A DNA stretch of 64,000 bases from NCBI GenBank assembly GCA_963702005.1, contig OY969696.1:608001-672000 (forward strand). Direction: 5' to 3'. The notes below the pieces were generated by a model. That model was not told where the DNA came from and made no database searches. It saw nothing but the letters and a program-made list of their open reading frames with translations. The stretch is from Candidatus Aminicenantes bacterium (GTDB lineage: Bacteria > Acidobacteriota > Aminicenantia > Aminicenantales > JAFGBC01). Each line of letters starts with the position of its first letter. Position 1 is the stretch's first letter. Position numbers and translations under genes: made by a program. Positions 25,618 through 62,079 of the stretch are shown in pieces.

Positions 25618-27321
25618 ATGTCGCACATCGGCTCCTATGACGATCGCCTGAAGAACTTCTCCTGGGACATCTCCGAGAAGGAGCTCGGCTACAAGCCGGG
25701 CGACGTCATCAACATCGCCTGGTACTGCACCGACCGCATCTGCCGGATGGGGAAAGGCAACAAGCTGGCCCTGATCTGGGAGGGGAGCACCGGGACGGAA
25801 AAGCGCTACACCTACAACGACATCCGCCTGGCCTCGAACACGATCGGGACGTACCTCCGCGGGCTCGGCCTCAAGCCGGGCGATCGGGTCTGCTTATTCA
25901 TGGACAAGATCCCCGAGCTCTACCTGGGCTTCCTGGGCATCCTCAAGATGGGCGCGATCGCCCAGCCCCTCTTCTCGGCCTTCGGCGACGAGTCCCTGTT
26001 CGTCCGCCTCTCGAACGCCGAGACCTCGGCCGTCATCACCCAGAAGAAACACGCCCCCAAGGTCCGCAAGATCCTGGACAAGCTTCCCTACCTCAAGCAC
26101 ATCATCATCGTCGATCACGACGGCGCCGCCCCCCTTAAAGAACGCGAGGCCGTTTTTAGCCTCGAGAAGGCTAAGCCGGTCGACGTCTTCGAGATCCATC
26201 CGACCAAGGCCGAGTCGCCCTCCGTCCTCCACTACACGTCGGGCACGACCGGAATGCCCAAGGGCGTCCAGCATGTCCACTACTCGCTCATCGCCCAGTA
26301 CCTGACCGGGAAGTGGGCCCTTGACCTCCGGGACGACGACATCTACTGGTGCACGGCCGACCCGGGCTGGGTGACCGGAACCTCCTACGGGATCATCGCG
26401 CCCTTCAGCCTGGGCGTCACCCAGTGCGTCCTCGACGCCGGGTTCCAAGCCGAGAGCTGGTACAAGTTCATCGAGAAGCGGCGGGTGTCGATGTGGTACT
26501 CGGCCCCGACCGCCATCCGCTCGCTCATGAAAGCGGGCGACGAAATCGTCAAGAAGCACGACCTGTCCTCCCTCCGCCACCTGGCCAGTGTCGGCGAGCC
26601 CCTCAACTCCGAGGCCGTCGTCTGGTCCCAGAAGGTCTTCGGCAAGCCCTTCTACGACACCTACTGGCAGACTGAAACGGGCTGCATCGTCATCAGCAAT
26701 TACCCGGGCATGGAGGTCCGGCCCGGCTCGATGGGCAAGCCCTTCCCGGGGATCACAGGCGTCGTCCTCGACCCGGTCAAGAACGAGCCCTACCCGGCGC
26801 CGGGCAAGATCGGGCTGGTCGCCCTCAAGTTCGACTGGCCCTCCCGGATGCGGACCTACTGGAATAACGAGGAAGCCTTCCGCAAGAAATTCAGGGGCGG
26901 CTGGTACATCACCGGCGACCGGTCGCGCCTCGACAACGACGGCTACTTCTGGTTCGCGGGCCGGGACGACGACATCATCAACACGGCCGGACACCTGGTC
27001 AGCCCATTCGAGGTTGAGTCGGCCCTGCTCGAGCATCCGGCCGTGGCCGAGTCGGCCGTCGTCAGCAAGCCCGACCCGATCAACCTCGAGGTCGTCAAGG
27101 CCTTCGTCACCCTCAAGCCCGGCTTCGCGGCCAGCAAGGACCTCGACCTCGAGATCATGAACTTCATCCGCAAGAAGCTCTCGCCGCTGGCCATGCCCCA
27201 GGAGATCGAGTTCGTGGAGGGCCTGCCCAAGACGCGGAGCGGTAAAATCATGCGCCGGATCCTCCACGCCAAGGAGTGGGGCGAGGAAATCGGCGACACC
27301 TCGACCCTCGAGAACGACTGA
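25618..27321 (+). CDS. Acetate/short-chain acyl-CoA (or acyl-ACP) ligase, AcsA-like
   Basis: YTSGTTGMPKG, WCTADPGWVTG, VGEPLN, DTYWQTETG, PKTRSGKIMRR. Confidence 0.9.
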   Translation: MSHIGSYDDRLKNFSWDISEKELGYKPGDVINIAWYCTDRICRMGKGNKLALIWEGSTGTEKRYTYNDIRLASNTIGTYLRGLGLKPGDRVCLFMDKIPELYLGFLGILKMGAIAQPLFSAFGDESLFVRLSNAETSAVITQKKHAPKVRKILDKLPYLKHIIIVDHDGAAPLKEREAVFSLEKAKPVDVFEIHPTKAESPSVLHYTSGTTGMPKGVQHVHYSLIAQYLTGKWALDLRDDDIYWCTADPGWVTGTSYGIIAPFSLGVTQCVLDAGFQAESWYKFIEKRRVSMWYSAPTAIRSLMKAGDEIVKKHDLSSLRHLASVGEPLNSEAVVWSQKVFGKPFYDTYWQTETGCIVISNYPGMEVRPGSMGKPFPGITGVVLDPVKNEPYPAPGKIGLVALKFDWPSRMRTYWNNEEAFRKKFRGGWYITGDRSRLDNDGYFWFAGRDDDIINTAGHLVSPFEVESALLEHPAVAESAVVSKPDPINLEVVKAFVTLKPGFAASKDLDLEIMNFIRKKLSPLAMPQEIEFVEGLPKTRSGKIMRRILHAKEWGEEIGDTSTLEND

Positions 27322-27608: not shown

Positions 27609-28856
27609 ATGGCATTCAGCGCTAAAATTCGCGAGAACTACCAGGCCCAGATCAAGGGCATCCGGGACGCCGGGATCTTCAAGCAGGAGCGGTTCATCCA
27701 TTCCCCCCAGGCGGCCGACATCGAGGTCGAGTTTCCGGCCGGCGCGCCCCTCAAGAAGGTCATCAACATGTGCGCCAACAACTACCTCGGGCTGTCCAGC
27801 CACCCCGAGGTCCTCAAGGCCGCCCATGAGGGGCTGGACACGCGCGGCTACGGCATGTCCTCGGTCCGCTTTATCTGCGGGACCCAGGACATCCACCGCG
27901 AGCTCGAGAAGCGCCTGACCGAGTTCCTGGGGACCGAGGACACCCTCCTCTTCCCCTCCTGCATGGACGCCAACGCCGGCGTCTTCGAGGCGATCCTGAC
28001 CAAGGACGACGTCATCATCTCGGACCGGCTCGTCCACGCCTCGCTCATCGACGGCATCCGGCTGTGCAGCGCGATGCAGGACTCGATCAAGCACTCCGAC
28101 ATGGCCCACCTCGAGGAGAAGCTCCAGCTCCACAAGGACAAGCGCTTCAAGCTCGTCGTCAGCGACGGCGTCTTCTCGATGGACGGCGACACGGCCAAGC
28201 TCGACGAGATGGTCGCCCTCTGCGAAAAATACGACGCCATGCTCCTCGTCGACGACTCGCACTCCTCGGGCTTCATCGGAAAAACGGGCCGCGGGACGCA
28301 CGAGAAATGCGGCGTCGTGGGCAAGATCGACGTCATCACCACGACCTTCGGCAAGGCGCTCGGGGGCGCTTCGGGCGGCTGCGTCAGCGGGCGCCGCGAG
28401 CTCGTCGAGATGTGCCGTCAGCGGGCTCGGCCGTACCTCTTCTCGAACACGATCGCCCCGGTCGTCGTCGCCGGCGTCCTCAAGGTCATGGACATCATCT
28501 CCCGGTCGACCGAGCGGCGCGACAAGCTCGAGCGGAACGCGGCCTACTGGCGCAAGGGCCTGACCGAGGCCGGCTTCGTCCTCAAAGAAGGCGACACGCC
28601 GATCGTCCCGGTCATGCTCTTCAACGCCAAGCTGGCCCAGGACGTCTCGCGGGCGCTCTACGAGGAAGGGATCTACGCCATCGGGTTCTTCTTCCCGGTC
28701 GTGCCCCAGAGCCAGGCCCGGATCCGGACCCAGATCTCGGCCGGCCACGAAATCCACCATCTCGACAAGGCCCTGGACGCTTTCCGCAAGGTCGGAAAAA
28801 ACTTCGACATCCTGGGCAAGACCAAGCAAGAGATCATCGCCAAGTACGGTATGTAA
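27609..28856 (+). CDS. kbl: Glycine C-acetyltransferase (2-amino-3-ketobutyrate CoA ligase), alpha-oxoamine synthase family
   Basis: CANNYLGL, SVRFICGT, DGVFSMDG, DDSH, FGKALGGASGG, RPYLFSN, ARIRTQISA. Confidence 0.88.
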   Translation: MAFSAKIRENYQAQIKGIRDAGIFKQERFIHSPQAADIEVEFPAGAPLKKVINMCANNYLGLSSHPEVLKAAHEGLDTRGYGMSSVRFICGTQDIHRELEKRLTEFLGTEDTLLFPSCMDANAGVFEAILTKDDVIISDRLVHASLIDGIRLCSAMQDSIKHSDMAHLEEKLQLHKDKRFKLVVSDGVFSMDGDTAKLDEMVALCEKYDAMLLVDDSHSSGFIGKTGRGTHEKCGVVGKIDVITTTFGKALGGASGGCVSGRRELVEMCRQRARPYLFSNTIAPVVVAGVLKVMDIISRSTERRDKLERNAAYWRKGLTEAGFVLKEGDTPIVPVMLFNAKLAQDVSRALYEEGIYAIGFFFPVVPQSQARIRTQISAGHEIHHLDKALDAFRKVGKNFDILGKTKQEIIAKYGM

Positions 28857-28892
28857 GGAATAAGGCTAAGGTCTTTCGAGGATAGATCCAAG

Positions 28893-30824
28893 GTGTCCGA
28901 GTACGATTTCGTCTACAAATCCTTCGAGGTCATGGCCCCTGAGGACTACGCCCGGGTCGGGTTCAAATCTGGCCTGGAGATCCACCAGCAGCTCCTGACC
29001 GCCAAGAAGCTTTTCTGCCGCTGCCCGGCCGGACGCTACTCCTCCAAATACGACGCCGAGATCCTCCGCCACATGAGGCCGACCCTGTCCGAATTGGGGG
29101 AGTACGACGGCACCGCCCTGATGGAGTTCAAGACCAAGAAGGAGATCATCTACCGGATCAACCGGGAAACGGTCTGCACCTACGAAATGGACGACACGCC
29201 GCCCTTCATGATCGATGAGGATGCCCTCGACATCGCGCTGGGGATCGGCCTCCTCTACAACTGCGTCATGGTCGATGAGCTCCACATCGCCCGCAAACAG
29301 TACCTGGACGGGTCGATCCCGACCGGCTTCCAGCGGACAACCATCGTCGGCGTCGACGGACATATCCCCTACGAAGGCCGCCAAATCCGGATCATCCAGC
29401 TCGGCCTCGAGGAGGACGCCTGCCGCGAGGTCAGTGACGTCGGCCACCGCCGGACCTACCTGACCGACCGGCTGGGAATGCCGCTGATCGAAACGGTGAC
29501 CGCCCCCGACATGAAAACGCCCCACGAGGTGGCCGAGGTCGGGCAAATCCTGCGCCGGATCGTCCGGAGCACGGGCCGGGTCAGGACCGGGATGGGGGCC
29601 GCCCGCGAGGACGTCAATGTCAGCGTCACGGGAGGCACACGGGTCGAGATCAAGGGCGTCCCGCGCCTCCCCCGCATTCCTCTCCTGACTTACAACGAGG
29701 GCATGAGGCAATGGAACCTCCTCCGCCTTCGCGAGGAGCTCGGCCGGCGCGGCATCACGACCGAGAGCTTCGGGTCCGAGTACCAGGAGATCACCAGGGT
29801 TCTGCGCCGGACGGCCTATCTTCCGATCCGGTCCGCCCTCGACTCCGGACTCAGCGTTTACGGGGTGCGTCTGCGCGGATTCCGGGGGATTCTCCTCTGG
29901 CAAACCCAGACCAACACGGTCTTTTCCCAGGAGATCTCGGACCGCGTCCGGGTCATCGCCTGCCTGACGACCCTCCCCAACATCATCCATTCCGACAGCC
30001 CGGGCGAGACGCTGGCGAGCTCCGAGTGGCTGAGCGTCAAGAAAGCCCTCAACGCCCGCGACGAAGATACGCTCGTCCTGGTCTGGGGCCCGGCCGAGGA
30101 CGCGCTGACCGGGGCCAAGGAGATCGTCATCCGGGCCAAGGAGGCGACGATCGGGATTCCATCCGAGACGCGCCAGGCCCTGGCCGACGGGACGAACGGG
30201 TTCGAGCGGATTCTGCCCGGACCGAACCGGATGTATCCGGACACGGACCTTCCGCCCAAGCCGGTGCCCGCCGAGCGGCTGGAGCGGATCCGGGCGGGGC
30301 TCCCGCCCCGAATCGTGGATCGGGAAATCCGCTATAAAGAGATTGGAGTCCCGGCCGACCTGCGCTCCGCGCTGGCCGTGTCGCCGTGGGCGGAGCTTTT
30401 CGAAAAGCTCATCGGCGAAAATAAGCTGCCGGCTTCGCTCGCGGCCGTCGTCCTCGTCCAGTATCCGAAGAGACTCAGGACGAAAGGGCTTCCGGCGGAG
30501 GGGCTGAGCGGGGACATGTTCCAATCCGCCTTCGCGGCGTTCAAGGACAGCCGCGTTTCCCGGGATGGCATTCTCGCGCTTCTGGAGGGCGCCCTCAGCG
30601 ACGGAAAGAATATCGGCGAGCTCGTTCCTCCGCCTTTCGACAAAGCCGACTTCGAAAAACGTCTGGCCGGGATCCCCGGCGACGTCAAAGGACGCTGTTT
30701 CGCCGATGCCGAGAGCCGTTGGCGCTATGTCATGGGGCTGGTCATGAAGGACTGGCGCGGACGGCTCGAGGGACGGACGGCGGCCGAGGAAGTCCGGCGG
30801 CGCTTGGAGAGGGTCAAGGCATGA
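28893..30824 (+). CDS. gatE: Glu-tRNA(Gln) amidotransferase subunit E (archaeal type)
   Basis: GLEIHQQL..KKLFCRCP, RPTLSELGEYD, DGSIPTGFQRT, LEEDACR, DRLGMPLIE, DVNVS, RVEIKGV, ETRQAL, RMYPDTDLP. Confidence 0.92.
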   Translation: MSEYDFVYKSFEVMAPEDYARVGFKSGLEIHQQLLTAKKLFCRCPAGRYSSKYDAEILRHMRPTLSELGEYDGTALMEFKTKKEIIYRINRETVCTYEMDDTPPFMIDEDALDIALGIGLLYNCVMVDELHIARKQYLDGSIPTGFQRTTIVGVDGHIPYEGRQIRIIQLGLEEDACREVSDVGHRRTYLTDRLGMPLIETVTAPDMKTPHEVAEVGQILRRIVRSTGRVRTGMGAAREDVNVSVTGGTRVEIKGVPRLPRIPLLTYNEGMRQWNLLRLREELGRRGITTESFGSEYQEITRVLRRTAYLPIRSALDSGLSVYGVRLRGFRGILLWQTQTNTVFSQEISDRVRVIACLTTLPNIIHSDSPGETLASSEWLSVKKALNARDEDTLVLVWGPAEDALTGAKEIVIRAKEATIGIPSETRQALADGTNGFERILPGPNRMYPDTDLPPKPVPAERLERIRAGLPPRIVDREIRYKEIGVPADLRSALAVSPWAELFEKLIGENKLPASLAAVVLVQYPKRLRTKGLPAEGLSGDMFQSAFAAFKDSRVSRDGILALLEGALSDGKNIGELVPPPFDKADFEKRLAGIPGDVKGRCFADAESRWRYVMGLVMKDWRGRLEGRTAAEEVRRRLERVKA

Positions 30825-32210
30825 ACGACGCCAACCTCTATAAAGGATACAAGGGCCGGGCCCTGGAGGTCCTCCAGAGCTTCCAGGCCCAGGTCTGGAG
30901 CGACGTCGTGATCAAGACCGATCGGGGCGAATACGTCGGCATCGTCCTGCCGCGCTCCGAGACGGCCGACCCCTTGCACGTCGTGCTCAAGCTCCGTTCG
31001 GGCTACAACATCGGAATCCTGGCCGAGAGCGTCCGCGAGGTCGAGATCCGGGGCCGCAAGGAAGCCCACTATAAGATCCCCGAGAAGGAATTTCCCTACG
31101 ACCCGGCCAAGCCGAGGGTGAAGCTTCTGGGAACGGGCGGCACGATCGCCAGCCGGCTCGACTACCGGACGGGCGCCGTCATCCCGGCCTTCTCGCCGGG
31201 CGAGCTCTACGGCTCGGTCCCCGAGCTGGCCGACATCTGCAACCTCGAAACCGAGAAACTCTTCGGCGTCTTCAGCGAGAACATGGGACCCGAACAGTAC
31301 ATCGGGACGGCCGAGGCCATCGGCCGCGAGATCAAGAAGGGGGTCGACGGGATCGTCATCGGCCACGGCACCGACACCATGCACCACACCGTCGGCCATC
31401 CTGTCCTTCATGGTTCAGAATTCGCCGGTGCCGATCGTCATGGTCGGCTCCCAGCGTTCGAGCGACCGGCCTTCATCGGACGCCGCCCTCAACCTCATGC
31501 ACAGCGTCAAGACGGCGGCCGAGAGCAACATCGCCGAGGTCATGGTCTGCATGTTCGGGCCGACCTCGGCCATCTACGGCCTCCTCCACCGCGGGACGCG
31601 CGTCCGCAAGATGCACTCGAGCTACCGCTCGACCTTCCGGACGATCGGGGATATTCCGCTGGCCATGGTCAGCCGGGAGAAGATCACGCCGCTGCGCCGC
31701 GACTACAAGCGTCGCCGGAACGACAAGAACGTCGTCATCAACACGGCCTTCGAGGAGAAGGTCGCCATCGTCTACTATTACCCCAACATGAAGCCGGACA
31801 TCATCGACTCCCTGATCGACAACGGCTACCTGGGGATCATCATCGCCGGGACGGGGCTGGGGCATGTCAACAAGCCGCTCTACCCGTCGCTCAAGCGGGC
31901 CCAGGACAAGAAGATCGCGGTGTACATGACCGTCCAGACGCTTTGGGGCTACGTCCAGATGTACGTCTACGACACGGGGCGGGACATGATGGAGCTGGGC
32001 GTCGTGCCGGCGGCCAACATGTTGCCCGAAGTCGCCTACGTCAAGCTGGCCTGGGCGCTGGGCCAGACGACCGACCTGGACGAAGTCAAGCGGATCATGC
32101 TGACGCCGATCGCCGGCGAGACGACCGAGCGCGAGCCCTCGAACGGGTATTTGATTTTTCAGGGCGGCATCCCCGAAGTCGAAGAATTCATCTCAAAATA
32201 TAGAAAATAA
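30821..32210 (+). pseudogene. gatD: Glu-tRNA(Gln) amidotransferase subunit D (archaeal type), split by a +1 frameshift near 31389 (possible sequencing error)
   Basis: LKLRSGYNIG, GTGGTIASRLDYRTGAV, HGTDTM, then in the other frame GSQRSSDRPSSDA, RKMHSSYRSTF, GTGLGH, VYDTGRD, MLPEVAYVKL. Confidence 0.88.
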
Positions 32211-32409
32211 AATCGGGGATAAAATCGGGGTCGGACCAAGCTATCTGATTGATAATTCAGTATATAGAACTGTTTCTCGGGTAAAAATATGCCTTAGATT
32301 GTGTTTTTAGACCCCATAAATCAATTATTCGACGATTTGGCGGGATCCGGATCGATTTTCCATTTTAAGATCGGGGGCGCGAATGAAACAACGGCAGAGC
32401 AAACCGTAT

Positions 32410-46212: not shown

Positions 46213-49200
46213 TCAGTTGAGCGCTTCGATCGCCTTGAGTTTGCCGGCCAGGCGCTTGGCGCTGACCGGGACGGCCGTCTTGAGCTCCGGCGCGAAAAGC
46301 GCCACTTTGAATTCTTCGACCAGCCAGCGGAATTCCTCGACGGCCGTTTTCTTCTCCGGCGGATCGCCGGGCTTGAGTTCTTTGAGGAGTTTGTCCAGCG
46401 CCGCCAGGAAGGGAGCGGCCTGGTCGGCTTTGCTCCGGTCCTTCTCGGGGCCGTGGACGGCCCTCTCGGCCCGGACGGCAAGGGCTTCGAGGTAGCGCGG
46501 CAGGTGCTCGAGGCGGTCGAGATCGTATAGGTCGAGGAAGTGCGGCGGCAGGAGGGCATCCGCTTCGGCTCGGATCCCGGCCAGGATGGATTTAAGGACG
46601 GGGCCGGGGCGGCCCGAAGCTTCGGCCTTGGTCAGGGCGCGGCGGACTTTCTGGCGCGCCTCGAGTATCTCGAGCGTACGCTCACGGAGAATATGGCCTT
46701 TTTCGAATAATCCTTTGACCACGGTCCCGGCGTAGGCCTTGAGCTCGTCCCCGCTCCGGATGTTCTTCCGGAAAACCTCGGCGCTCAATCTCTCGGCCAT
46801 CCTCCTCTCGATGGCCGCCTTGCCCTCGAAGGGAAGATAGGCGGTCTTGGGCTCTTCGGGAAGGACGAGCGTGCGCTTGACGAACTCTAGGTCCTTTACG
46901 AACTTGGGCAGAAGCAGGGCTTCGATTCCCTTGAGGTGCGAATCGAGCGCCTCCTGCCGCGATCGGAACAGGCGGACGTTGACACCGGCGCTAACAATCT
47001 CGAGCCCCGGATAGGCGGTCGTGAAATGACCGGCCATGACGGTCTCGGGAAGCTCGCCGATGTCCAAAGTTGTGATCCCCCTCTTCTCCCACGTCGCCTT
47101 CGCACGCTTCCAATCCTCCGAGTCCTCGGGAAGCACGACGCCCCGTCCCGCTTTACGCAGCGCCTCGATGTCGCGCGAGGCCGCGATCTCCTTTCCCTCA
47201 TGATCGGTCACGGCGACCCGGACCCTGAGATGGTCGGGAACTTCGGCCTTGGCCCATTCGGCGGCCGGGATATCGACTCTGAATTTCTCCTTGACGAACT
47301 TGGCGAGAGTATCATAAAGCGAGGGGCCCGTGACCGTCATCTCCCGGACGATGACCTCGGCCTTCTCGGGCGCGGGTACGAGGAGCTTCCTGTAGCGCTT
47401 GGGAAGCCCCTTGATGAGGGCCGTGACCCTCTCCTTGTACTGGCCGGGGACTCCCCAGCTGAGTTGTTCGGCCGGGAGGCCGGCGATGAGTCCGGCCGGG
47501 ATCTTGAGCGTGACGCCGTCGTCCTTCTCGCCGGGCGCGAACCGGTAGCTCGCCTTGAGCCGCTTCCCCTCGAGCGTCAGCTCGTCCGGGAACTGCCGCA
47601 GCTCCCCTTCGTCGGGGCGGGCGCGGATGAGGTCCTTCTCGCTCATCCTGAGAAATGCGTCGCCGCCCGACTTCCTGACGCGCTGGATCAATCCGCACAG
47701 ATCGAAGACGCCGGCCAGCCGGTTCTCGTAGAACGCGGCCTGATCCTCCTCGTCGGCCAGGATGTCCCGGCGCCGCATCTTCTCCTCCATGTCGGCGACC
47801 TTGCGGACAAGCTCCAGGTTGTGGCGGAGGAAGGCGGGCGGCTCCTTGACCCGTCCCGCGACGAGCGCCTCCCGGACGAAAATAGTCTGGGCCTCGTCGG
47901 GATTGACGGGTCCGTAAGCGACGTCGCGGCCCGAAACGATTTCCAGCCCGAAGAGCGAGACCTTCTCGGTCGCCCGGACCTCGCCCCGCTCCTCGTCCCA
48001 GCGCGGGTCGAGGTGCGCATAGCGGCAGAGGTCTCCACCCAGCCTCTCGAGCCAATCCGGGTCGATCTTGGCGCACATCCGGGCGAACAGGCGTGAGGTC
48101 CGGACGATCTCCGCGGCCACGATCCAGGGCTTGGCCTTGCCGAAGAGCGCCGACCCGGGAAAGACCATGATCTCCCGGTTCTTGGCCGCCGTGTAAAAGC
48201 TCTTTTCCTTGTGGACGCCGAATTGGGAGAGAAATCCGCTCAGGATGGAGCGGTGGATCCGTCCGTAGAGGTCGGGCGTCAGCTCGGCCCGCCGGCGCCG
48301 TCCGGCCGGGATGCGCAGCTCCTCGACGATGGCCAGGATCTGGTCGTGGACGAAGATCCACTCCCGCATCCGGGTGAAGGACAGAAAATGCTCATGACAG
48401 AATTTTTTGAGCTTGGCCCAAGACGGCCGCTTCTCGGAGCCTTCGTGGAAGCGGTCCCAGATCGCAAGGAGCGTCAGGAAATCGGAATCGGGATGGCGGA
48501 AGACGAGCTGGGCGGCATCGGCGGCATCAACCTGGTCGGGCGGACGCTCGCGCGGGTCGCGAATGCTGAGGGCGGCGGCGATGACGGCCGTCTCGGCGAG
48601 GCACCCTTCCTCGGACGCCTCGAGGAGCATCCGGCTGATCCGGGGGTCGAGGGGCATCCGGGCCATGCGGCGTCCGAGGTCGGTCAGGCGGACTTCGCGC
48701 GCCTCCCCGGTCGTGGCGCCCAGCTCGGCCAGCTCCTCGTAGCCGTCCTTGACGGCCTTGGCCTGGGGCCGGTCCACGAAGGGAAAGTCCAGGGGGTGGC
48801 CGAGCCGGAGGTCGATCATGCGCAGGATGACCTCGGCCAGGTTGGAGCGGAGGATTTCGGGCGGCGTGAAGCGGGGCCGCGCCTCGTAGTCGTCCAGGGA
48901 ATAGAGCCGGATGCAGTGCCCGGCCGCGACCCGGCCGCAGCGGCCCTTGCGCTGGTCGGCGCTCGAGCGCGAGACGGGGCTGATCGGGAGGCTGTTGATC
49001 CGGGTCCCTGGTTGGTATTGGGCGATCCGGGCCAGGCCGGTGTCGATGACGAAGCGGATGCCCGGGATGGTCAGCGATGTCTCGGCGACGTTAGTGGCGA
49101 CGACGATCTTGGGCCCGGTCACGGAATAGACGCGTCCCTGTTGGGCGGCCGGGAGTCGCGCATAGAGGGGGAGGACGGTCATGCCCGGGGTGCGCTTTCC

Positions 49201-49950
49201 CTCCAGCCGTTCGCATGTCTCGAGAATGTCCTGCTCGGTCGGCATGAAGATGAGGATATCGCCTGCAAGGCGTCGCGACTTGAGCCGCTCGACGGCTTTG
49301 ACGGCTAGGTCAACGTAATCGCTCTCGTCGATGCCGGGCAAGGCCTCGGCCGGCAGATACTCGACCTCGACCGGGTAGAGGCGGCCGCCGATCTCGATGA
49401 CCGGCGCCCCGGGGAAAGCGCGGCTGAAGGTCTCGACGTCGAGGGTGGCCGAGGTGATGATGAGACGGAGGTCGCGACGGCGCGGGAGGAGCGTTCGGGC
49501 GATGCCGAGCAGGAAGTCGATGTTGAGGCTCCGCTCGTGGGCCTCGTCGATGATGAGCGTTCCGTAGGCCGCGAGGCTCGGGTCGGACTGCGTTTCGGCC
49601 AGGAGCATCCCGTCCGTCATGATCTTGATCAGGGTTCGGGGCGAGGTCTTGTCCTGGAAGCGGATCTTGTAGCCGACCGTTGAGCCTAAGGACTCGCCCA
49701 TCTCCTCTGCTATCCGGTAAGCGATCGTGACGGCCGCGATACGGCGCGGCTGGGTGCAGCCGACGAGCCCGACCTCTGCGCGCCCGGCCTCGATACACAT
49801 TTTCGGGATCTGCGTGCTCTTCCCGCAACCCGTCTCCCCGCAGATAATGACGACGCGGTTGTGTTTGATGGCCCGGACGATCTCCCCCCGATGAGCCGTG
49901 ATCGGCAGCTCCTTCGGGTAGCGGAGGACTGGCGTCCGCGTCGTTTCCAT
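46213..49950 (-). CDS. hrpA: ATP-dependent RNA helicase HrpA
   Basis: GETGCGKSTQ, TQPRR, DEAH, SAT, ATNVAETS, QRKGRCGR; C-terminal EEF.V.LFAPEL. Confidence 0.95.
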   Translation of the reverse strand: METTRTPVLRYPKELPITAHRGEIVRAIKHNRVVIICGETGCGKSTQIPKMCIEAGRAEVGLVGCTQPRRIAAVTIAYRIAEEMGESLGSTVGYKIRFQDKTSPRTLIKIMTDGMLLAETQSDPSLAAYGTLIIDEAHERSLNIDFLLGIARTLLPRRRDLRLIITSATLDVETFSRAFPGAPVIEIGGRLYPVEVEYLPAEALPGIDESDYVDLAVKAVERLKSRRLAGDILIFMPTEQDILETCERLEGKRTPGMTVLPLYARLPAAQQGRVYSVTGPKIVVATNVAETSLTIPGIRFVIDTGLARIAQYQPGTRINSLPISPVSRSSADQRKGRCGRVAAGHCIRLYSLDDYEARPRFTPPEILRSNLAEVILRMIDLRLGHPLDFPFVDRPQAKAVKDGYEELAELGATTGEAREVRLTDLGRRMARMPLDPRISRMLLEASEEGCLAETAVIAAALSIRDPRERPPDQVDAADAAQLVFRHPDSDFLTLLAIWDRFHEGSEKRPSWAKLKKFCHEHFLSFTRMREWIFVHDQILAIVEELRIPAGRRRRAELTPDLYGRIHRSILSGFLSQFGVHKEKSFYTAAKNREIMVFPGSALFGKAKPWIVAAEIVRTSRLFARMCAKIDPDWLERLGGDLCRYAHLDPRWDEERGEVRATEKVSLFGLEIVSGRDVAYGPVNPDEAQTIFVREALVAGRVKEPPAFLRHNLELVRKVADMEEKMRRRDILADEEDQAAFYENRLAGVFDLCGLIQRVRKSGGDAFLRMSEKDLIRARPDEGELRQFPDELTLEGKRLKASYRFAPGEKDDGVTLKIPAGLIAGLPAEQLSWGVPGQYKERVTALIKGLPKRYRKLLVPAPEKAEVIVREMTVTGPSLYDTLAKFVKEKFRVDIPAAEWAKAEVPDHLRVRVAVTDHEGKEIAASRDIEALRKAGRGVVLPEDSEDWKRAKATWEKRGITTLDIGELPETVMAGHFTTAYPGLEIVSAGVNVRLFRSRQEALDSHLKGIEALLLPKFVKDLEFVKRTLVLPEEPKTAYLPFEGKAAIERRMAERLSAEVFRKNIRSGDELKAYAGTVVKGLFEKGHILRERTLEILEARQKVRRALTKAEASGRPGPVLKSILAGIRAEADALLPPHFLDLYDLDRLEHLPRYLEALAVRAERAVHGPEKDRSKADQAAPFLAALDKLLKELKPGDPPEKKTAVEEFRWLVEEFKVALFAPELKTAVPVSAKRLAGKLKAIEALN

Positions 49951-55157: not shown

Positions 55158-56720
55158 TCAGAGGACGACGGCCCCGGACAAGACGTCCTTGGCGCCGCTG
55201 AGAATGTCAACGGCCTCGATGATGACGAAGTGATCGCCGGCTTGCAGCTTCTGGAGGTTGAGCGAGATGTGGATCTTCTCCTGGACAAGCTCTAAGGTCT
55301 TCATCTCTTCGAAAACCTTAGTCGATTTATCGTCGAAAATCGTGATCTTAACCGCGGCTCGGCCCAGGTCCTTCCCGTTCTTGGAGATCCGGATATAGTT
55401 CCCGATAGTAAAGGCGATGGTCTTGGGCCGGTATTCGAGGCCGGAGATCGCGATGGCCGGAGGCTTAACGCCGACGAATTTCTTCAGGGAGACGACGTCG
55501 ACCCCCTCCCGGCGGACCCGGACCTCGATCGTCCGTTCTTTCTCTCCCCCTTTATCTTGGGGCTGGTAGACAAGCAGATAGTACTTGTCTTCCTTGACGG
55601 CCGCCTCCTTCAGCGTCTCCAGGACCATGTTGGAAAACGCGGTCAGGCCGCCCGTCGACCGGCTGATCCGGCGCAGGACATCTTCATAGTCCCCGTTGAC
55701 GTCCCGGAGTTCCAAATCCTGAGACCAGTTGGACGCCGGTCGAGACAGAGACTTCATGAGGAGGAGGTGGAAGGTGATGTTGGCCTCGGCGAAGAGCGCG
55801 CGGATTTGATCAGCGGGAAGGAGGGTCGTTATGTCGAACGAGCGTTGAAGTTCATCCAGCTGGGTCTGGGCAATTCTGGCCCGGGTTTGAGGAAGGGGCT
55901 CGACCTGGAGGCCGAGAAAGTTCCTGATTTCCGTGTCCAGCCGGCCCTGAGACCTGAGCCTTGGGAAAAGGTCGCGCTGCTGGAAACAGATGGCCCATTT
56001 CTCGCCGTCCCAGCGTTCAAGCTTTCGAATGACGGCCCGGTACAGATCCAGGTTGACGTCCAGGAGTCGCCTCCTGTAATCTCCCCAGGTTCTTTTATAC
56101 TCTTCGCAGAATTGACTGATGGCTTGGAATAAGTCTTGCGTCGGGTAATCGGTCACTTCGTTTCCCGACAGGGCGGCCACCAGATTTTCCGCTCTCCCCT
56201 CCAGAGAATGGAACGACCTCGAGATTTCAAACCCCGAAATCTTCTTATACTTGATTAGGGAGTCCTTGATCCTGGAAACGAGGGCGTCGATGTTCTGACC
56301 CGGTTGGGTGTCGAAAACTTTGTCTTCGACCAAGACGATCATCCGGTCGTTGGGCGTAAAAATGGTTTTAAAAAAGTAATCGATCGCCTCCCCGACTTGA
56401 TCCGTGTAATCGAAGACGTTGAAGATGAGGACAAAGTTTCTGGGCCGGGGCGTCCCGGGGAGCAGTCCGGGGAACGCGACCGCGGCCGGAGCAATCGTCC
56501 TCGAGACGGCCTCGAATCCCGTGATTTCCTGTTTGAGGCCGTTTTCATAGACTTCAAAATCCTCCTTGGTCAGGCCGGCGATAAAGCCTTTGCTGTCAAA
56601 CACCCGGACCGGGACTTCGACCGCGGTGACCACGACCGATTCCCTGGGTTTGTTTTGAGGACTGAGGACACCGACGGAAACAAGGAGGACGATCAATGCC
56701 GACAGGCGAATCTTTTTCAT
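55158..56720 (-). CDS. Secreted VWA-like hypothetical protein
   Basis: Signal peptide; V.V.AVEVPVRV.D..G.FI.GLTKEDFEVYENG..QEI..F; ISRSTGG, YYLLVYQP. Confidence 0.75.
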   Translation of the reverse strand: MKKIRLSALIVLLVSVGVLSPQNKPRESVVVTAVEVPVRVFDSKGFIAGLTKEDFEVYENGLKQEITGFEAVSRTIAPAAVAFPGLLPGTPRPRNFVLIFNVFDYTDQVGEAIDYFFKTIFTPNDRMIVLVEDKVFDTQPGQNIDALVSRIKDSLIKYKKISGFEISRSFHSLEGRAENLVAALSGNEVTDYPTQDLFQAISQFCEEYKRTWGDYRRRLLDVNLDLYRAVIRKLERWDGEKWAICFQQRDLFPRLRSQGRLDTEIRNFLGLQVEPLPQTRARIAQTQLDELQRSFDITTLLPADQIRALFAEANITFHLLLMKSLSRPASNWSQDLELRDVNGDYEDVLRRISRSTGGLTAFSNMVLETLKEAAVKEDKYYLLVYQPQDKGGEKERTIEVRVRREGVDVVSLKKFVGVKPPAIAISGLEYRPKTIAFTIGNYIRISKNGKDLGRAAVKITIFDDKSTKVFEEMKTLELVQEKIHISLNLQKLQAGDHFVIIEAVDILSGAKDVLSGAVVL

Positions 56721-56756
56721 GCGACCCCCTGGGCGTTGCCATCCCTTTCTTCCATC

Positions 56757-56772
56757 TGCATATTTTATGCCA
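56757..56772 (-). promoter_or_regulatory. Possible sigma54 promoter
   Basis: Minus strand TGGCAT-AAAAT-ATGCA upstream of the 56720 start. Confidence 0.45.
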
Positions 56773-56984
56773 GATATGCGCCCTGATGATAATCTTACAA
56801 GGGCGGAACTCTGTCACTGAGTATAGACACCCGTCCACTTTTCATCCTCTCGTGCCGTCTGGCGATTTCTTCCGATGGGCTCCCGCGTCGATTCCATACG
56901 CTCCATTTTATCAAATTAATGAGTCCTTTTATTCTTAAACTACATTGACGCTGCTTATTTGCGAAACTGGCTATCTTTAAGATG

Positions 56985-57013
56985 TTGACTTTTCTATGTT
57001 ACGGCCTTAATCT
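56985..57013 (+). promoter_or_regulatory. Putative sigma70 promoter of the RT locus
   Basis: TTGACT-N17-TAATCT, implying a ~175-nt 5' leader before the RT ATG. Confidence 0.65.
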
Positions 57014-57196
57014 TCAATGGAAAGGGTTGGTTTTGTTTAGTTACTTTGTTTTTCAATCGGATCGTGATGCTTTTGGAGTCTCTAAAAACTCCCATTCAAG
57101 ATCTCCCGATGATTGAAAGGTCATGATTTATAATAAAAATGTCGTTTGCGTGGAAATGAAAGGCATTGACGATAATAGAAACCTAAAAGGAAATAA

Positions 57197-58711
57197 ATGG
57201 GTAGGATACCATTAGATCATTTTAGAGATACTGAAAAGCTAGCTAAAGCGCTAAATAAGCCAGATATCTATGAGTGGCTTGTTACAACTGGCTACTTCCC
57301 AGAGTCATATGTATTGCCTCCATGCTTTCAAGTGATAGACCATCCTGCATATGGGAAGAGATATTTCTCTCATTCAATGAGAAATTTTAAGCCTAAATTA
57401 GCTGAGTATCATCAAGTTAGTTTCCCGAAAACAGAGTTAATTGATAGAACTTTTGCATTGATTGATCCAGAGCTTCATTTGGATATCGCATATGCGATAA
57501 CGAAAAACTGGAATAAAATTATCGATTGTATTTTCCACAAAAACAACAAAGTGTGTTCATACAGTTTTCCTATTCCGCTTAATTCGGCGACTCCAGGGAA
57601 GATCGGAGGCTTACGGAGTGGCCGGATGATCTATGAATATATTGAAATGGCTGAAAACGATATTGCTAAAATAGCATATAATTATAAATACCTAATAAAG
57701 ACAGACATTACCAACTTTTACCCCTCAATTTACACTCACAGTATTTCTTGGGCTATACATGGGAAGGCTACTATACGTAAACTCTCCAACCGATATAATT
57801 ACTCATATATTGGAAACCGCCTGGATAAATTGTTCCAAAACTCTAATGATGGGTGCACCATTGGAATCCCGATTGGTCCCGCAGTTTCAGATCTAATAGC
57901 AGAAGTAATATTAGCCGGAGTAGATAGACAATTATCAAAATTAATTGATGATGATGCAGTCGTTGTTAGATTCAAAGACGACTATCGTATTCTCGTAAAA
58001 AGTGAATCTAAAGGCAAGGATTTAATTAAATCCCTCCAGGCTAATCTAAAAGAGTTTAAGCTTGATCTTAACAACGAAAAAACAAAGTACTATGAGTTGC
58101 CAGATGGGTTGTTTCGTAATTGGGTATCTCAGTATCATGCTGCGAATCCGAGACCGAAAGCCTATTATAGTTTCAGAAGATTTAAAGAAGTCTATTTATC
58201 AGTAATAAACATAGACAGACAGAATCCATCTACTGGTGTGATAGACAGGTTTCTAGCGGACATAGTGACAAAAGAATACCTGCTTCGTTTTAATTTGAAC
58301 TCGAGGACTTTGCCTAAAATTATTAGTCTCCTTCTGATGTTGGCTGACTTAAGAATCAAAGCATTTCCAAAAGTGTTAGCAATTATTGAATCTATACTAA
58401 AGTCACCTTTTGGTAAAGCGCATTCTGATAATATCGTTAGATACCTCGATAATTTACTGCAAACACTTTCCGAGCATGAATTGAATAATAGATACCTTAT
58501 CAGTTGGATATGTTATTTCTTTAAGGCCAATAAATTAGATAAGAAAATGGCCCACAAGTATAAGTTCAAAGATCCTATCATCCGTTCTATTTACACCAGT
58601 CGCTCAGCAATTTTCAAAGATAGTATTGATTTTAAGCTCTTTTTGGGGGCTAAATCAGTGGCGAAAAAAGTAAATTTATTGGCACATCTCGATGCATTTA
58701 AGCCGCAATAG
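57197..58711 (+). CDS. Reverse transcriptase of the Abi/UG (defence-associated) class, FKDD active site
   Basis: GYFPE..LPPCF N-terminus; KTDITNFYPSIYTHSISWA; GIPIGP..SDLIAE; RFKDDYRI; L.LN.EKT; ~200-aa probably helical C-terminus; AT-rich DNA; AAGGA RBS. Confidence 0.9.
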   Translation: MGRIPLDHFRDTEKLAKALNKPDIYEWLVTTGYFPESYVLPPCFQVIDHPAYGKRYFSHSMRNFKPKLAEYHQVSFPKTELIDRTFALIDPELHLDIAYAITKNWNKIIDCIFHKNNKVCSYSFPIPLNSATPGKIGGLRSGRMIYEYIEMAENDIAKIAYNYKYLIKTDITNFYPSIYTHSISWAIHGKATIRKLSNRYNYSYIGNRLDKLFQNSNDGCTIGIPIGPAVSDLIAEVILAGVDRQLSKLIDDDAVVVRFKDDYRILVKSESKGKDLIKSLQANLKEFKLDLNNEKTKYYELPDGLFRNWVSQYHAANPRPKAYYSFRRFKEVYLSVINIDRQNPSTGVIDRFLADIVTKEYLLRFNLNSRTLPKIISLLLMLADLRIKAFPKVLAIIESILKSPFGKAHSDNIVRYLDNLLQTLSEHELNNRYLISWICYFFKANKLDKKMAHKYKFKDPIIRSIYTSRSAIFKDSIDFKLFLGAKSVAKKVNLLAHLDAFKPQ

Positions 58712-58765
58712 GGTGTTTATCAAATTCATAGGCTCGGGAAACAGAAGGCGTCGCTATTTATTAGC

Positions 58766-60202
58766 TGGCAGCCGTAAGGACATCGATAAGCGTTTCTTAA
58801 TGAGTGAAACCGTAAGGACATCGATAACTGATCGGCCTTCAAGCGATCGGATCGACGACTTTACCGACGAACGGAAAAGGAAACGTCTTGATAACCTTCC
58901 CCTCGTACTTGACGAAGACTCTGCGATGGTACGTCGAGAGTGTGGCCACGACGTACTGTCGTTCCAGTCTACGGAGGATGAAATACGCGGCGCCGTTGAA
59001 TTCGATGCAACCGTGGGCATCCACCTTGCGGACGAACGAGACGCAGCCCTTGGCGATCGGCAGATCGAGGTGTCCCCGGGAATCGAGATGCTGATCGAGA
59101 TTGAAGGCGGATGGGAGATGACGAAGTGCGGACCAGAGCCGGTCGCGGAGTTGGCCGGGAAAGCGGGTGCCGTGATCGGTTGCCCGGAGGCTTCGATTCG
59201 GCTTCTCGAAGTGGTAGTAGCGGAGGAATCGTTCGCTCGTGCGGCGCAAGGACCGAAGATCCGGACAGGGATGACGGAGCACCCGCGCCTGCCAGACCGC
59301 ATTGAAGCTTTCGATAGCGGCGTTGCGGCCGGGTTCTTTCGGGGGAATGAAGCGAAGCTGGATGCCCAACAAAAGATGGAGCCGGATGAGCTGAGAGAGA
59401 CTGTAGCGATACCGTCCCCCTCCCGTCGCGGCCATCTCGTTGTCCATCTGGGAGATTCGGGGAAGCCCCATAACTTGCCAGGAATCAACCAGATGACGGC
59501 AGAGCGAGATCGTTCTCTTGTCGCGGACCTGGCTGGCCGCAGTGGTCTGTCCGGCGGCGTCGATGGTGTGGATGGAGTAGAAGCGGGTGACTCCCGCAGG
59601 ACCGCGGAGATGACGGGGCCCGACCAGGTCGGTTTGCTGAAGGTCGCCCATCTTACGGGCCGGGACGTAGGGATAGGGAGGCCCGTTGGAGGAGCGTTTG
59701 GCCTTGGCCTTTTTCGTTCGTCCGGCGCGGGCCAGGATCTTCTCGATGGTCGAGATGGCGGGAAGCTGGCGGACGCCCCGTCGCTGAAGCTCGAAATGGA
59801 TCGTTTCGGCGCCGATGCCGGCAAAAGCGGCGCGACGGGTCTTGTGGGCCGCCAGTTCGTCGCGCAGGACCAGGATTTTCCGGACCAAGGGCTCCCGCGT
59901 TTGATGGGGGATATGTCTCGGTACCCGACTTTGGTCGCGAAGCCCATCAAGCCCGAATTTTCGATGGCGATTGAGCCATTTGGAGAGCCAAAAGCCGCTC
60001 CGATGGACGGTGCGGAGGATTTCGTTAAACCCAATCCCATCATAGTAATTTTCAATGGCTTTCTTCCGAGTCTCATATTCGCTCTTGATGCTCACCGCAA
60101 AGATCTCCTTCCCACTGGAATGGGAAAGAGTTTAAGCGATGAGCAAATCGCTTATCGATGTCCTTACGGTTATTCACTTAGCGATGTCCTTACGGGAACC
60201 CA
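58766..60202 (-). mobile_element. IS481-like insertion sequence, copy 2, target duplication TTAGC
   Basis: TTAGC at 58761-58765 and 60203-60207; matches copy 1 at offset 5958, terminal base differs. Confidence 0.9.
58839..60095 (-). CDS. IS481-like DDE transposase (same protein as copy 1)
   Basis: Same 418-aa translation as 52881-54137. Confidence 0.9.
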   Translation of the reverse strand: MSIKSEYETRKKAIENYYDGIGFNEILRTVHRSGFWLSKWLNRHRKFGLDGLRDQSRVPRHIPHQTREPLVRKILVLRDELAAHKTRRAAFAGIGAETIHFELQRRGVRQLPAISTIEKILARAGRTKKAKAKRSSNGPPYPYVPARKMGDLQQTDLVGPRHLRGPAGVTRFYSIHTIDAAGQTTAASQVRDKRTISLCRHLVDSWQVMGLPRISQMDNEMAATGGGRYRYSLSQLIRLHLLLGIQLRFIPPKEPGRNAAIESFNAVWQARVLRHPCPDLRSLRRTSERFLRYYHFEKPNRSLRATDHGTRFPGQLRDRLWSALRHLPSAFNLDQHLDSRGHLDLPIAKGCVSFVRKVDAHGCIEFNGAAYFILRRLERQYVVATLSTYHRRVFVKYEGKVIKTFPFPFVGKVVDPIA

Positions 60203-60277
60203 TTAGCTCTATTTCTTGAGTACGTTTATGAATTCTGCTTGCGCTACCCTGTTTATGTCCTTACTTAATAAGAGAGG

Positions 60278-61231
60278 ATGAAAATGCAAGAAAGTCATTC
60301 AAAATATTCATCGATCGATCTATGTATTCCTATATACCTCAATTCAAACATAGTACTTGATCTCTTGGCCATATTCGAGGACGGTTTCTCAAATGTCACA
60401 GAAATTAAAACGTCGATAACAGATGTAAAAGAGAAGAGAAGCGGACTTGAGGCTAAGGTCGGGGCTACCAACTTATTTGCTCTACTTGGAATTTCAGGTG
60501 GTGGGAATCTGAGTACCAGAAGCGCAGATAGTGGAGGGCTTACGGCGAGGACTGAGAAGATCCATACGCCAACTTCATTATTCAACAAATTGAGATCATT
60601 GTTAATTCAGGGCGGTTTGCTTAAAACTCTTGCCGAAAATGGTTCGAACCTATCAAGCATTAAAAGTGGAGACTTTTTGGAAACTAATACGATTCTCAAT
60701 AAAAACCCGATAATAGACACGTTCCAAGGATTATTGCAGTTCATGACATTCTCTTTGCCATTTTTAGATGATAACAAGGCCAATAATTCTGATATCGGTG
60801 GGAGGAAATCTTTAAAACAATCCCTCCAACCTAAAATTGATAACCAAAAAATAATCACTCAGATGAAAGGATTAGTAGAAGCTCTTTCAAGCGGAGCCAC
60901 CATTGATCTTATTGGGAAAACCGTTCCATTATCAGATACGACATTGGTACTTTCTTCACAAATTAGATTCTTCTTAAATGAATCCTATGATGAAATTCTT
61001 GATGGAGAATACAGAGTGCTTGCTAAAGTTGTGAGGACAATGCTAAGAGATACGTCGGAATCCATAAACTTACTTCGAAAAACAACCTTTAGTAGAATTC
61101 AAGATAGCCTATTTCATAAGATGATGTCAGGTCTCAATGAAATTGAACAAAAGGGATTGAAACCAGTTCAGCTAGTGACTGAGATAAATGGACCCGCTAT
61201 TCATCTGCTGCCCATTGCTATATATGTATGA
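60278..61231 (+). CDS. DUF6414-like hypothetical protein in the AT-rich island
   Basis: IPIYLN..IVLDLLAIFEDGFS, EKIHTPTSLF.KLR, DGEY.VL.KV, INLLRKT, C-terminal PIAIYV; GAGG RBS; family recognised from memory. Confidence 0.65.
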   Translation: MKMQESHSKYSSIDLCIPIYLNSNIVLDLLAIFEDGFSNVTEIKTSITDVKEKRSGLEAKVGATNLFALLGISGGGNLSTRSADSGGLTARTEKIHTPTSLFNKLRSLLIQGGLLKTLAENGSNLSSIKSGDFLETNTILNKNPIIDTFQGLLQFMTFSLPFLDDNKANNSDIGGRKSLKQSLQPKIDNQKIITQMKGLVEALSSGATIDLIGKTVPLSDTTLVLSSQIRFFLNESYDEILDGEYRVLAKVVRTMLRDTSESINLLRKTTFSRIQDSLFHKMMSGLNEIEQKGLKPVQLVTEINGPAIHLLPIAIYV

Positions 61232-61287
61232 TCCAAGGTGCAAACATATTTATCTTAGATTATCGGTGCAGCTGGGCGGTGAAGGTT

Positions 61288-62079
61288 CTATCGCTTCCGG
61301 AGGCGGGTTAAAATGACCGGGCGGCCGTTGCCCTCAAGAATTTCGGCATCGACGCCGTAGGTCGTTTTAATGTTGGCAGCGTTAAGGGTATCCCGAACGG
61401 AACCGGCGGCTACGACTTTTCCTTTACGGAGAAGAACGATGGAATCGGCCGAGGCCGAAGCGACATTGGGATCGTGGGTGGTGAAGACGATGGTCTTTCC
61501 TTTGTCCCGAAGGGATTCGATCGTCCAGCATATCCTCTGAGTGTTGGCCAAATCGAGGTGGGACATGGGCTCGTCGAGGAGGAAGATCAGCGGATCCTGT
61601 GCTAGTACCCGGGCCAGCGAGGCGAGTTGTTTCTCTCCAGCACTAAGCGTCGGAAGCGCCCGGCTCCGGAGCTTCCGGATTCCCGCGGCTTCCATGGCCG
61701 CCTCGGCGGCGCGCCTGTCCTCGGCGCCCGGCGTCTCCAGAAATCCGAGATAGGGCGCGCGTCCAAGAAGGACATACTCTAGGACGCTGAGCTCGAACCC
61801 GGCCGGCTCCTCCTGTGGGACGAAGCCGATGACGCGGCTCATCTCGCGCCTGGAGAGGTCTGTTCCGGCCCGGCCGTCGAGCTCGATCCGGCCAACCCTC
61901 GGTCGGAGCCAACCTAGAATCAGATTGAGGAGTGTCGTCTTTCCAGACCCGTTGGGGCCGAGCAGGGCGCAGATGGTCCCGGCGCCGATGTCGAGCGAGA
62001 GGTCGCGGAGGACCTCGGGCCCGGACTCCGAATAGGCGAAGGACAAATCCCGGATCGAGATCATAGCTCCGCCGCTCAT
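61288..62079 (-). CDS. Iron-siderophore/cobalamin ABC transporter ATP-binding protein
   Basis: GPNGSGKT, LSAGEKQ, LLDEP.SHLD, TTHD. Confidence 0.9.
   Translation of the reverse strand: MSGGAMISIRDLSFAYSESGPEVLRDLSLDIGAGTICALLGPNGSGKTTLLNLILGWLRPRVGRIELDGRAGTDLSRREMSRVIGFVPQEEPAGFELSVLEYVLLGRAPYLGFLETPGAEDRRAAEAAMEAAGIRKLRSRALPTLSAGEKQLASLARVLAQDPLIFLLDEPMSHLDLANTQRICWTIESLRDKGKTIVFTTHDPNVASASADSIVLLRKGKVVAAGSVRDTLNAANIKTTYGVDAEILEGNGRPVILTRLRKR

Follow-up and report, generated by a model that had tools for sequence, protein, structure and literature searches.

A gatE-gatD operon of a bacterial GatDE branch in a Candidatus Aminicenantes genome that also encodes glutaminyl-tRNA synthetase

A stretch of 64,000 nucleotides from a Candidatus Aminicenantes bacterium (contig OY969696.1, positions 608,001 to 672,000; hereafter the window, in which all positions below are counted unless another prefix is given) carries gatE and gatD, the genes for the two subunits of GatDE, a Glu-tRNA(Gln) amidotransferase of archaeal type (Table 1). 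The gatE gene is an open frame of the 643 codons proposed in the initial annotation and matches the GatE equivalog model NF003107 over profile positions 5-627 of 630 (511.2 bits; cut-off 456), with TIGR00134 likewise exceeded (441 bits; cut-off 319.55). Models of the paralog GatB reach only 47-127 bits (TIGR00133 at 91-110 bits). The Pfam domain GatB_N (277 positions) covers residues 26-460 at 155.8 bits, and GatB_Yqey, at 24 bits, stays under its cut-off of 27. Among solved structures, residues 18-641 align with chain 1zq1_C of Pyrococcus abyssi (1ZQ1; E 7.8e-101) and residues 18-638 with chain 2d6f_C of Methanothermobacter thermautotrophicus (2D6F; E 2.5e-91). The GatE-type insertion (residues ~290-400), which has no counterpart in GatB, can be aligned with both of these chains with no large gap, and the C-terminal tail aligns to residues 430-630 of 1zq1_C.

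The two genes overlap by ATGA, as had been noted, with the ATG of gatD (30821-30823) lying over the TGA of gatE (30822-30824). The description of gatD as a single gene did not hold up: positions 30821-32210 comprise 1390 nucleotides (3n+1), the two halves lie in different frames, and the initial annotation had read through the break between them. The N-terminal half matches PF18195 (GatD_N, 51.1 bits), PF00710 (83.9 bits) and positions 4-168 of NF003217 (169.1 bits), while the C-terminal half matches PF00710 (74.7 bits), PF17763 (112.9 bits), positions 162-403 of TIGR02153 (310.7 bits) and positions 175-415 of NF003217 (310.6 bits; cut-off 310). Across the two halves, the domain order required of GatD (GatD_N, asparaginase N, asparaginase C) is complete.

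Table 1. Features of the gatE-gatD locus and its surroundings, in window coordinates.
Feature	Coordinates	Strand	Description
gatE	28893-30824	+	643 amino acids, GTG start, TGA stop; GatB/GatE catalytic cradle with GatE-type insertion and C-terminal tail
ATGA overlap	30821-30824	+	gatD start codon over gatE stop codon; read from the sequence
gatD, N-terminal half	30821-31390	+	190 codons; GatD_N and first half of the asparaginase fold
Extra base shifting the gatD frame	31391-31391	+	placed by the alignment at 31391 or 31392
gatD, C-terminal half	31392-32210	+	272 codons and stop; second half of the asparaginase N domain and Asparaginase_C
Terminator-like hairpin	32333-32354	+	~120 nucleotides 3' of gatD; weak consensus match only
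HrpA	46213-49950		DUF3418 (494.5 bits) and helicase domains

The window is part of a single contig of 4,309,361 bp, rated 94% complete and 1.95% contaminated, and the operon lies 28 kb inside the window. As initially described, the composition is host-like, with a G+C of 0.636-0.648 at positions 28001-32000 that matches the rest of the window, and the context is bacterial, including the gene for HrpA. The closest GatE proteins (60-86% identical) come first from Candidatus Aminicenantes records and then from Ignavibacteria, Kapabacteria and Chlorobiota. Composition, context and the taxonomy of these nearest relatives argue strongly against archaeal contamination or a chimeric join; an archaeal or chimeric contig had been named among the circumstances that would refute the assignment of an archaeal-type GatDE to a bacterium.

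The extra base in gatD ('acc g tcg gcc' in the window) separates 'cac cac acc' from 'tcg gcc atc' and falls at a codon that differs from one relative to another: in 12 relatives the junction has '...cac cac' and acc or acg, then one of GCG, GCC, TCG and TCC (codons for Ala or Ser), and then gcc or gcg. Of 80 related loci fetched via GatE, four are cut short and 76 have both gatD halves; in 75 of the 76 one half follows the other in the same frame, with 0 nucleotides between them. The exception, from a Bacteroidetes metagenome-assembled genome (MAG; L054:7914-9411), has the halves in different frames ~250 nucleotides apart, with the N-half match ending at residue 144, and is another broken or interrupted copy. 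Near-invariant GatD columns are kept in the window at 274 of 276 positions (N half, 102 of 102; C half, 172 of 174), against a baseline from leaving relatives out one by one, in which the median number of missed columns is 0-1 and the maximum 3-5. Identity of the GatD halves over the 75 loci, which belong to several phyla, is 70-93%, and GatDE is, by these alignments, under strong purifying selection across phyla.

Contigs of close relatives from public sequencing runs (X1, X2 and X3, of four compared) have one base fewer at 31391/31392; the depth lacking the base is 7 of 7 in X1 and 16 + 27.9 of 43.9, all of the depth at the site, in X2. Among the contigs without it is one of 148 nucleotides with only two mismatches. 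These contigs belong to relatives and are not the assembly's own reads (the best run shares 0.22 of sampled words), such that they show the state of the relatives only. When flanking proteins of relatives were used as probes on the genome, with 35 and 69 places tested, two further conserved large genes were found split between frames, at ~C1:3377006-3377040 and ~C1:4046470-4046485 (the relatives' proteins have 909-1272 and 1607 amino acids); the splits either stem from indel errors or mark real pseudogenes. Split copies of gatE or glnS also occur in several few-contig genomes of the class. Because the relatives are in frame, the near-invariant residues are kept and the relatives' contigs are without the base, the break in gatD is most likely an error of the assembly consensus or, at most, a very recent mutation. 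Nothing downstream of it has decayed, and long-standing decay is excluded.

The origin of the bacterial GatE was explored with an exhaustive, profile-free search that returned, at E ≤ 1e-30, 674 representatives. In a tree of 120 full-length GatE rows, two clades separate, with a starred support of 99 on each side. The smaller clade (45 rows) contains the window, all 11 named bacterial loci, a Deltaproteobacteria MAG and representatives of the candidate division CSSED10-310, and the named rows of the larger clade (75 rows) are Heimdallarchaeota, Thorarchaeota, Thermoprotei, Thermoplasmatota and Odinarchaeota. A second tree, of a subset of these rows, was rooted with GatB (67 rows: 62 GatE and five bacterial GatB, one of the latter on a long branch) by a quick search under a posterior mean site frequency (PMSF) model, with support from the Shimodaira-Hasegawa-like approximate likelihood ratio test (SH-aLRT) only. 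In this tree the 62 GatE rows are parted from GatB by a branch with a starred support of 100, contrary to the grouping with bacterial GatB that had been considered as a possible objection. All of the bacterial GatE, including that of the window, form one clade of 27 rows (100, starred) sister to the Heimdallarchaeota cluster P0159 (98, starred), and both lie inside a clade of 33 rows (100, starred) that also holds Thor and Odin rows; the labels rest on name or genome context for seven of the 27 'bacterial' and five of the 35 'archaeal' rows, the others being labelled from the first tree. The branch separating the bacterial clade from archaeal GatE is starred and has a length of 0.36. The most economical reading of these trees would be that an Asgard-like archaeon was the source of a single old transfer and that GatDE later spread across bacterial phyla, in keeping with the old archaea-to-bacteria transfer initially suggested, and the family scores of both proteins in a bacterial host bear out the residence of an archaeal-type GatDE in a bacterium.

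An inventory of the host genome, which had been proposed as a check, found GatCAB to be missing: no GatB was detected, with only gatE responding to the model (91.2 bits; cut-off 314.8), and no true GatA, the best amidase reaching 224.7 bits (cut-off 481.1). The genome encodes glutaminyl-tRNA synthetase (GlnRS; 722.8 bits), asparaginyl-tRNA synthetase (AsnRS; 457.7 bits), one glutamyl-tRNA synthetase (GluRS), two asparagine synthetases (AsnB) and two glutamine synthetase hits. GatDE in the archaeal sense would be expected as the sole route in a genome without GlnRS, which this genome is not. There are two tRNA(Gln) genes, with UUG and CUG anticodons, and both carry U1-A72 and G73, the bacterial type. 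Archaeal GatDE, according to passages of PMC9499178, reads the A1-U72 pair of tRNA(Gln), and inspection of the 1-72 pair, as called for initially, found A1-U72 in neither gene. The D-loops, as read from tRNA drawings, have 7 nucleotides in tRNA(Gln) and 9 and 11 nucleotides in the two tRNA(Glu) genes, and the longer tRNA(Glu) loops fit discrimination by D-loop size.

The same translation families (GatE, GatB, GlnRS, GluRS and AsnRS) were searched for in 151 genomes of the class, and the genome tables were counted by hand. GatE (best E ≤ 1e-40) was present in 94 genomes, 86 of these above the family cut-off, and 88 of the 94 also have GlnRS; the six without a GlnRS match are 83-93% complete. 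GatB is found in 42 genomes, with GlnRS present in four of them and absent from 38, and co-occurs with GatE in three (G041, G113 and G136). The remaining 18 genomes have neither GatE nor GatB, and GlnRS is present in 13 of the 18, while three of the 18 have partial GatE-like hits. AsnRS occurs in 142 of the 151 genomes, those with GatB included. All 42 GatB genomes have at least two GluRS matches (E ≤ 1e-80), and the 94 GatE genomes have one match (65 genomes), two (23) or none (6) at the same threshold. The class thus obtains Gln-tRNA in two ways, by GatCAB together with two GluRS or by GlnRS together with GatDE and, usually, a single GluRS, and a few of its lineages have GlnRS alone. The genomes are kin, a handful of transitions could yield this pattern, and the counts of co-occurrence do not constitute a statistical test. 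The initial suggestion that GatDE had replaced GatCAB stands insofar as GatCAB is missing from the host and GatB is found in so few of the GatE genomes; it fails insofar as GatDE is not the only route to Gln-tRNA. Five genomes reached through loci extend the picture: two are Aminicenantes that again have GatE with GlnRS (G153 and G154), a Kapabacteria chromosome has GatE, GlnRS and GatB, an Ignavibacteriales genome combines GatE with GlnRS and has no GatB, and a complete genome outside the class (G152) has GatE and GatB without GlnRS.

In a carefully built tree of 22 GluRS from the class, the GluRS of the GatCAB genomes fall into two paralog clades. The single GluRS of genomes with GatDE and GlnRS groups with those of G089 and G143 (96/93, starred), two single-contig genomes among the 18 without GatE or GatB that have GlnRS only, and this group is sister to one of the paralogs. 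The GluRS of the window's own genome is 70% identical to that of G003, which has GatDE and GlnRS, and 64-65% identical to those of G089 and G143, and the four form a clade with a support of 100/100. Among side observations on these synthetases, the family f4 genomes G091 and G137 (87-92% complete) have GlnRS and both GluRS paralogs, with neither GatE nor GatB found. In the host, gltX is of a short form (432 amino acids; C1:2363331-2366277, together with glnS) with ~40 fewer residues in the connective region than most GluRS chains in the PDB, and it lies directly upstream of glnS, an adjacency that recurs in several genomes of the class (e.g., G014, G086 and G130).

Taking identity and chemistry as a whole, the pair is probably a native gatE-gatD operon of a bacterial GatDE branch, encoding an auxiliary Glu-tRNA(Gln) amidotransferase beside GlnRS. 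By homology, GatD, an asparaginase-type amidase, would release ammonia from glutamine or asparagine, and GatE would use ATP to phosphorylate the glutamate on Glu-tRNA(Gln) and amidate it to Gln-tRNA(Gln). As GlnRS and AsnRS are predicted to charge the amide tRNAs directly, with GatCAB gone, GatDE would provide an auxiliary route and not the sole one that it is in archaea. We infer that it most likely converts Glu-tRNA(Gln) still made by the single GluRS, or supplies Gln-tRNA when free glutamine is low.

With the archaeal GatDE of 1ZQ1 and 2D6F the window shares both subunits and their domain order, and both of its proteins match the GatE and GatD equivalogs. The differences are that the window's host is a bacterium with GlnRS, that its tRNA(Gln) has U1-A72 where the archaeal one has A1-U72, and that the window GatE shares only 32-39% identity with representatives of the archaeal clade, the bacterial sequences forming a starred clade of their own. 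On the GatB-rooted tree, the bacterial clade has as its closest archaeal neighbours the Asgard GatE (MAG proteins of Heimdall-, Thor- and Odinarchaeota), which differ in having archaeal hosts and in their sequences, P0159 being 39% identical to the window GatE. Bacterial GatCAB has the same overall reaction on Glu-tRNA(Gln), and its GatB is a paralog of GatE, but it consists of three subunits, and in place of the asparaginase-type GatD it has a GatA of the amidase family; it is paired in the class with two GluRS, mostly without GlnRS, and is absent from the window's genome.

A seemingly redundant tRNA-dependent amidotransferase kept together with both direct synthetases likens the host to Deinococcus, Thermus and Bdellovibrio. 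In these bacteria GatCAB serves the tRNA-dependent synthesis of asparagine, asparagine synthetase being absent. They keep GatCAB beside GlnRS and AsnRS, as described in PMC4206432. In contrast, the window's genome has two AsnB and glutamine synthetase and archaeal GatDE is described as specific for glutamine, and because of this the explanation by asparagine synthesis is not transferable to GatDE. Retention of GatDE for tRNA-dependent biosynthesis of either asparagine or glutamine was rejected for this genome, which encodes AsnB and glutamine synthetase as well as AsnRS and GlnRS.

Several observations weigh against an auxiliary GatDE in this host. GlnRS is present, so a need for GatDE is not demonstrated, and the first pair of both tRNA(Gln) genes is of the bacterial type. 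No amidotransferase was found in the single-contig, GlnRS-only genomes G089 and G143, and since these relatives share the same GluRS ortholog, their loss of GatDE argues that it was dispensable in such a background. A GluRS of this type may charge little tRNA(Gln), that is, may already discriminate. Further, the extra base in gatD sits outside any homopolymer, and the reads of the source assembly are absent from the runs compared, such that a true frameshift in the strain is possible.

These last points bear on the explanation that survives best after an auxiliary amidotransferase, namely that gatD is a real and recent pseudogene and that GatDE, dispensable beside GlnRS, is starting to decay here as it was lost outright in some sister lineages. 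We consider this unlikely. The break stands in the assembled sequence, and the GlnRS-only relatives have the same GluRS ortholog; however, the number of near-invariant columns kept in the C half is within the range of intact relatives, gatE is intact, near-identical contigs from elsewhere are without the extra base, and other conserved genes of the same assembly are likewise split.

The presence of GlnRS in nearly all of the GatE genomes of the class could also be accounted for if the bacterial GatDE had taken up another job, whether by acting on a different misacylated tRNA or a tRNA-like substrate or by forming a second route under regulation, which would explain its retention with GlnRS. 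The very strong conservation of GatD, the tRNA(Gln) first pair unlike the archaeal identity element, and the long starred branch between the bacterial clade and archaeal GatE are in favour of such a change. Despite these, a different job appears rather improbable, given the full-length architecture and the close alignment to archaeal GatE and GatD. The genome G152, with GatE and GatB and without GlnRS, has the archaeal arrangement, and GatDE would there be the route to Gln-tRNA(Gln); the six GatE genomes with no GlnRS match point the same way, though they are incomplete. With AsnRS and AsnB both encoded, there is no need for a role in asparagine supply.

A programmed +1 ribosomal frameshift, for which the upstream frame is open to 32203 with no stop after the shift site, is rejected because the shift is not conserved, GatD lying in one frame in 75 of 76 relatives, and together with an archaeal contaminant or chimeric join, which is at odds with the host-like G+C, the position of the operon in a bacterial contig and its nearest relatives, it is hardly credible.

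The association of GatDE with GlnRS also invites a bolder proposal, which is doubtful and is put forward only tentatively: in Aminicenantia, and probably in other phyla, GatDE and GlnRS might form a deliberate two-route system, in which an Asgard-type GatDE was captured once in the distant past, re-tuned to U1-A72 and strongly selected. If so, GatDE would have a role that GlnRS is unable to fill, and candidates for it include removing Glu-tRNA(Gln) that a relaxed GluRS produces, providing Gln-tRNA under scarcity of free glutamine, or acting on some other substrate.

Passages of two reviews (PMC9499178, 2022; PMC8007984, 2021) state that GatDE is found only in archaea, and the literature search, which included titles with 'GatDE' since 2013 and did not cover supplements, found no paper on bacterial GatDE. 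In the databases, NCBI annotation already names GatE in Aminicenantes MAGs, and 583 stretches of a species-level genome collection encode GatE relatives. The reservation that the GatDE of this lineage might already be documented is thus borne out by annotation and not by any paper found; the gap lies in the literature and not in the databases. The window GatDE is an ordinary representative of a large bacterial branch that databases already annotate, and it adds little by itself, being one more member with its gatD broken in the assembly. What is added is the frame break, the pattern within the class (GatCAB with two GluRS versus GlnRS with GatDE) and the GlnRS-only relatives. A large bacterial clade of GatDE spanning multiple phyla contradicts the archaea-only statement, on which rest arguments about the last universal common ancestor and about why archaea never adopted GlnRS. 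It raises the questions of what job a Gln-specific amidotransferase has in a cell with GlnRS and of how U1-A72 is read, and the central puzzle is why GatDE travels with GlnRS.

Upstream of gatE lies a class I/II aminotransferase gene (Kbl-like; PF00155, 198.2 bits; 27609-28892 region), whose stop is 36 nucleotides before the gatE start. No promoter-like site was found in this 36-nucleotide gap, and gatE and gatD may be co-transcribed with the aminotransferase gene and with the gene for an AMP-binding enzyme at 25618-27321. The flanking genes are not shared with related loci (0 of 51; best hits of open reading frames of at least 200 amino acids), and the gatE-gatD pair moves as a unit. A linkage of the pair to tRNA-Gln genes was rejected, as none occurred in the fetched flanks of 60 related loci, where tRNA-Leu was seen in three. 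Terminator-like sites in the scanned region, which include the hairpin downstream of gatD, number nine versus 6.0 expected from shuffles, a count that says nothing of function.

Elsewhere in the genome, the only tRNA-Asn(GTT) found by ARAGORN (C1:2776675-2777011; L119:301-564) has an anticodon loop interrupted by a group I intron (Rfam RF00028; 99.5 bits, E 2.1e-26), and with default settings ARAGORN finds no tRNA-Asn. Within the window, an island of low G+C at 56000-62600 (0.44-0.51 versus ~0.62) encodes a defence-type reverse transcriptase (57197-58711; PADLOC RT_UG14, 683.7 bits; Pfam RVT_1, 57.5 bits), which is overlapped by an open reading frame of 504 amino acids (58692-60206) with no match in Pfam or PADLOC. 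The same island carries an AAA-ATPase on the reverse strand (61288-62520) that resembles mad3/AriA (119.5 bits).

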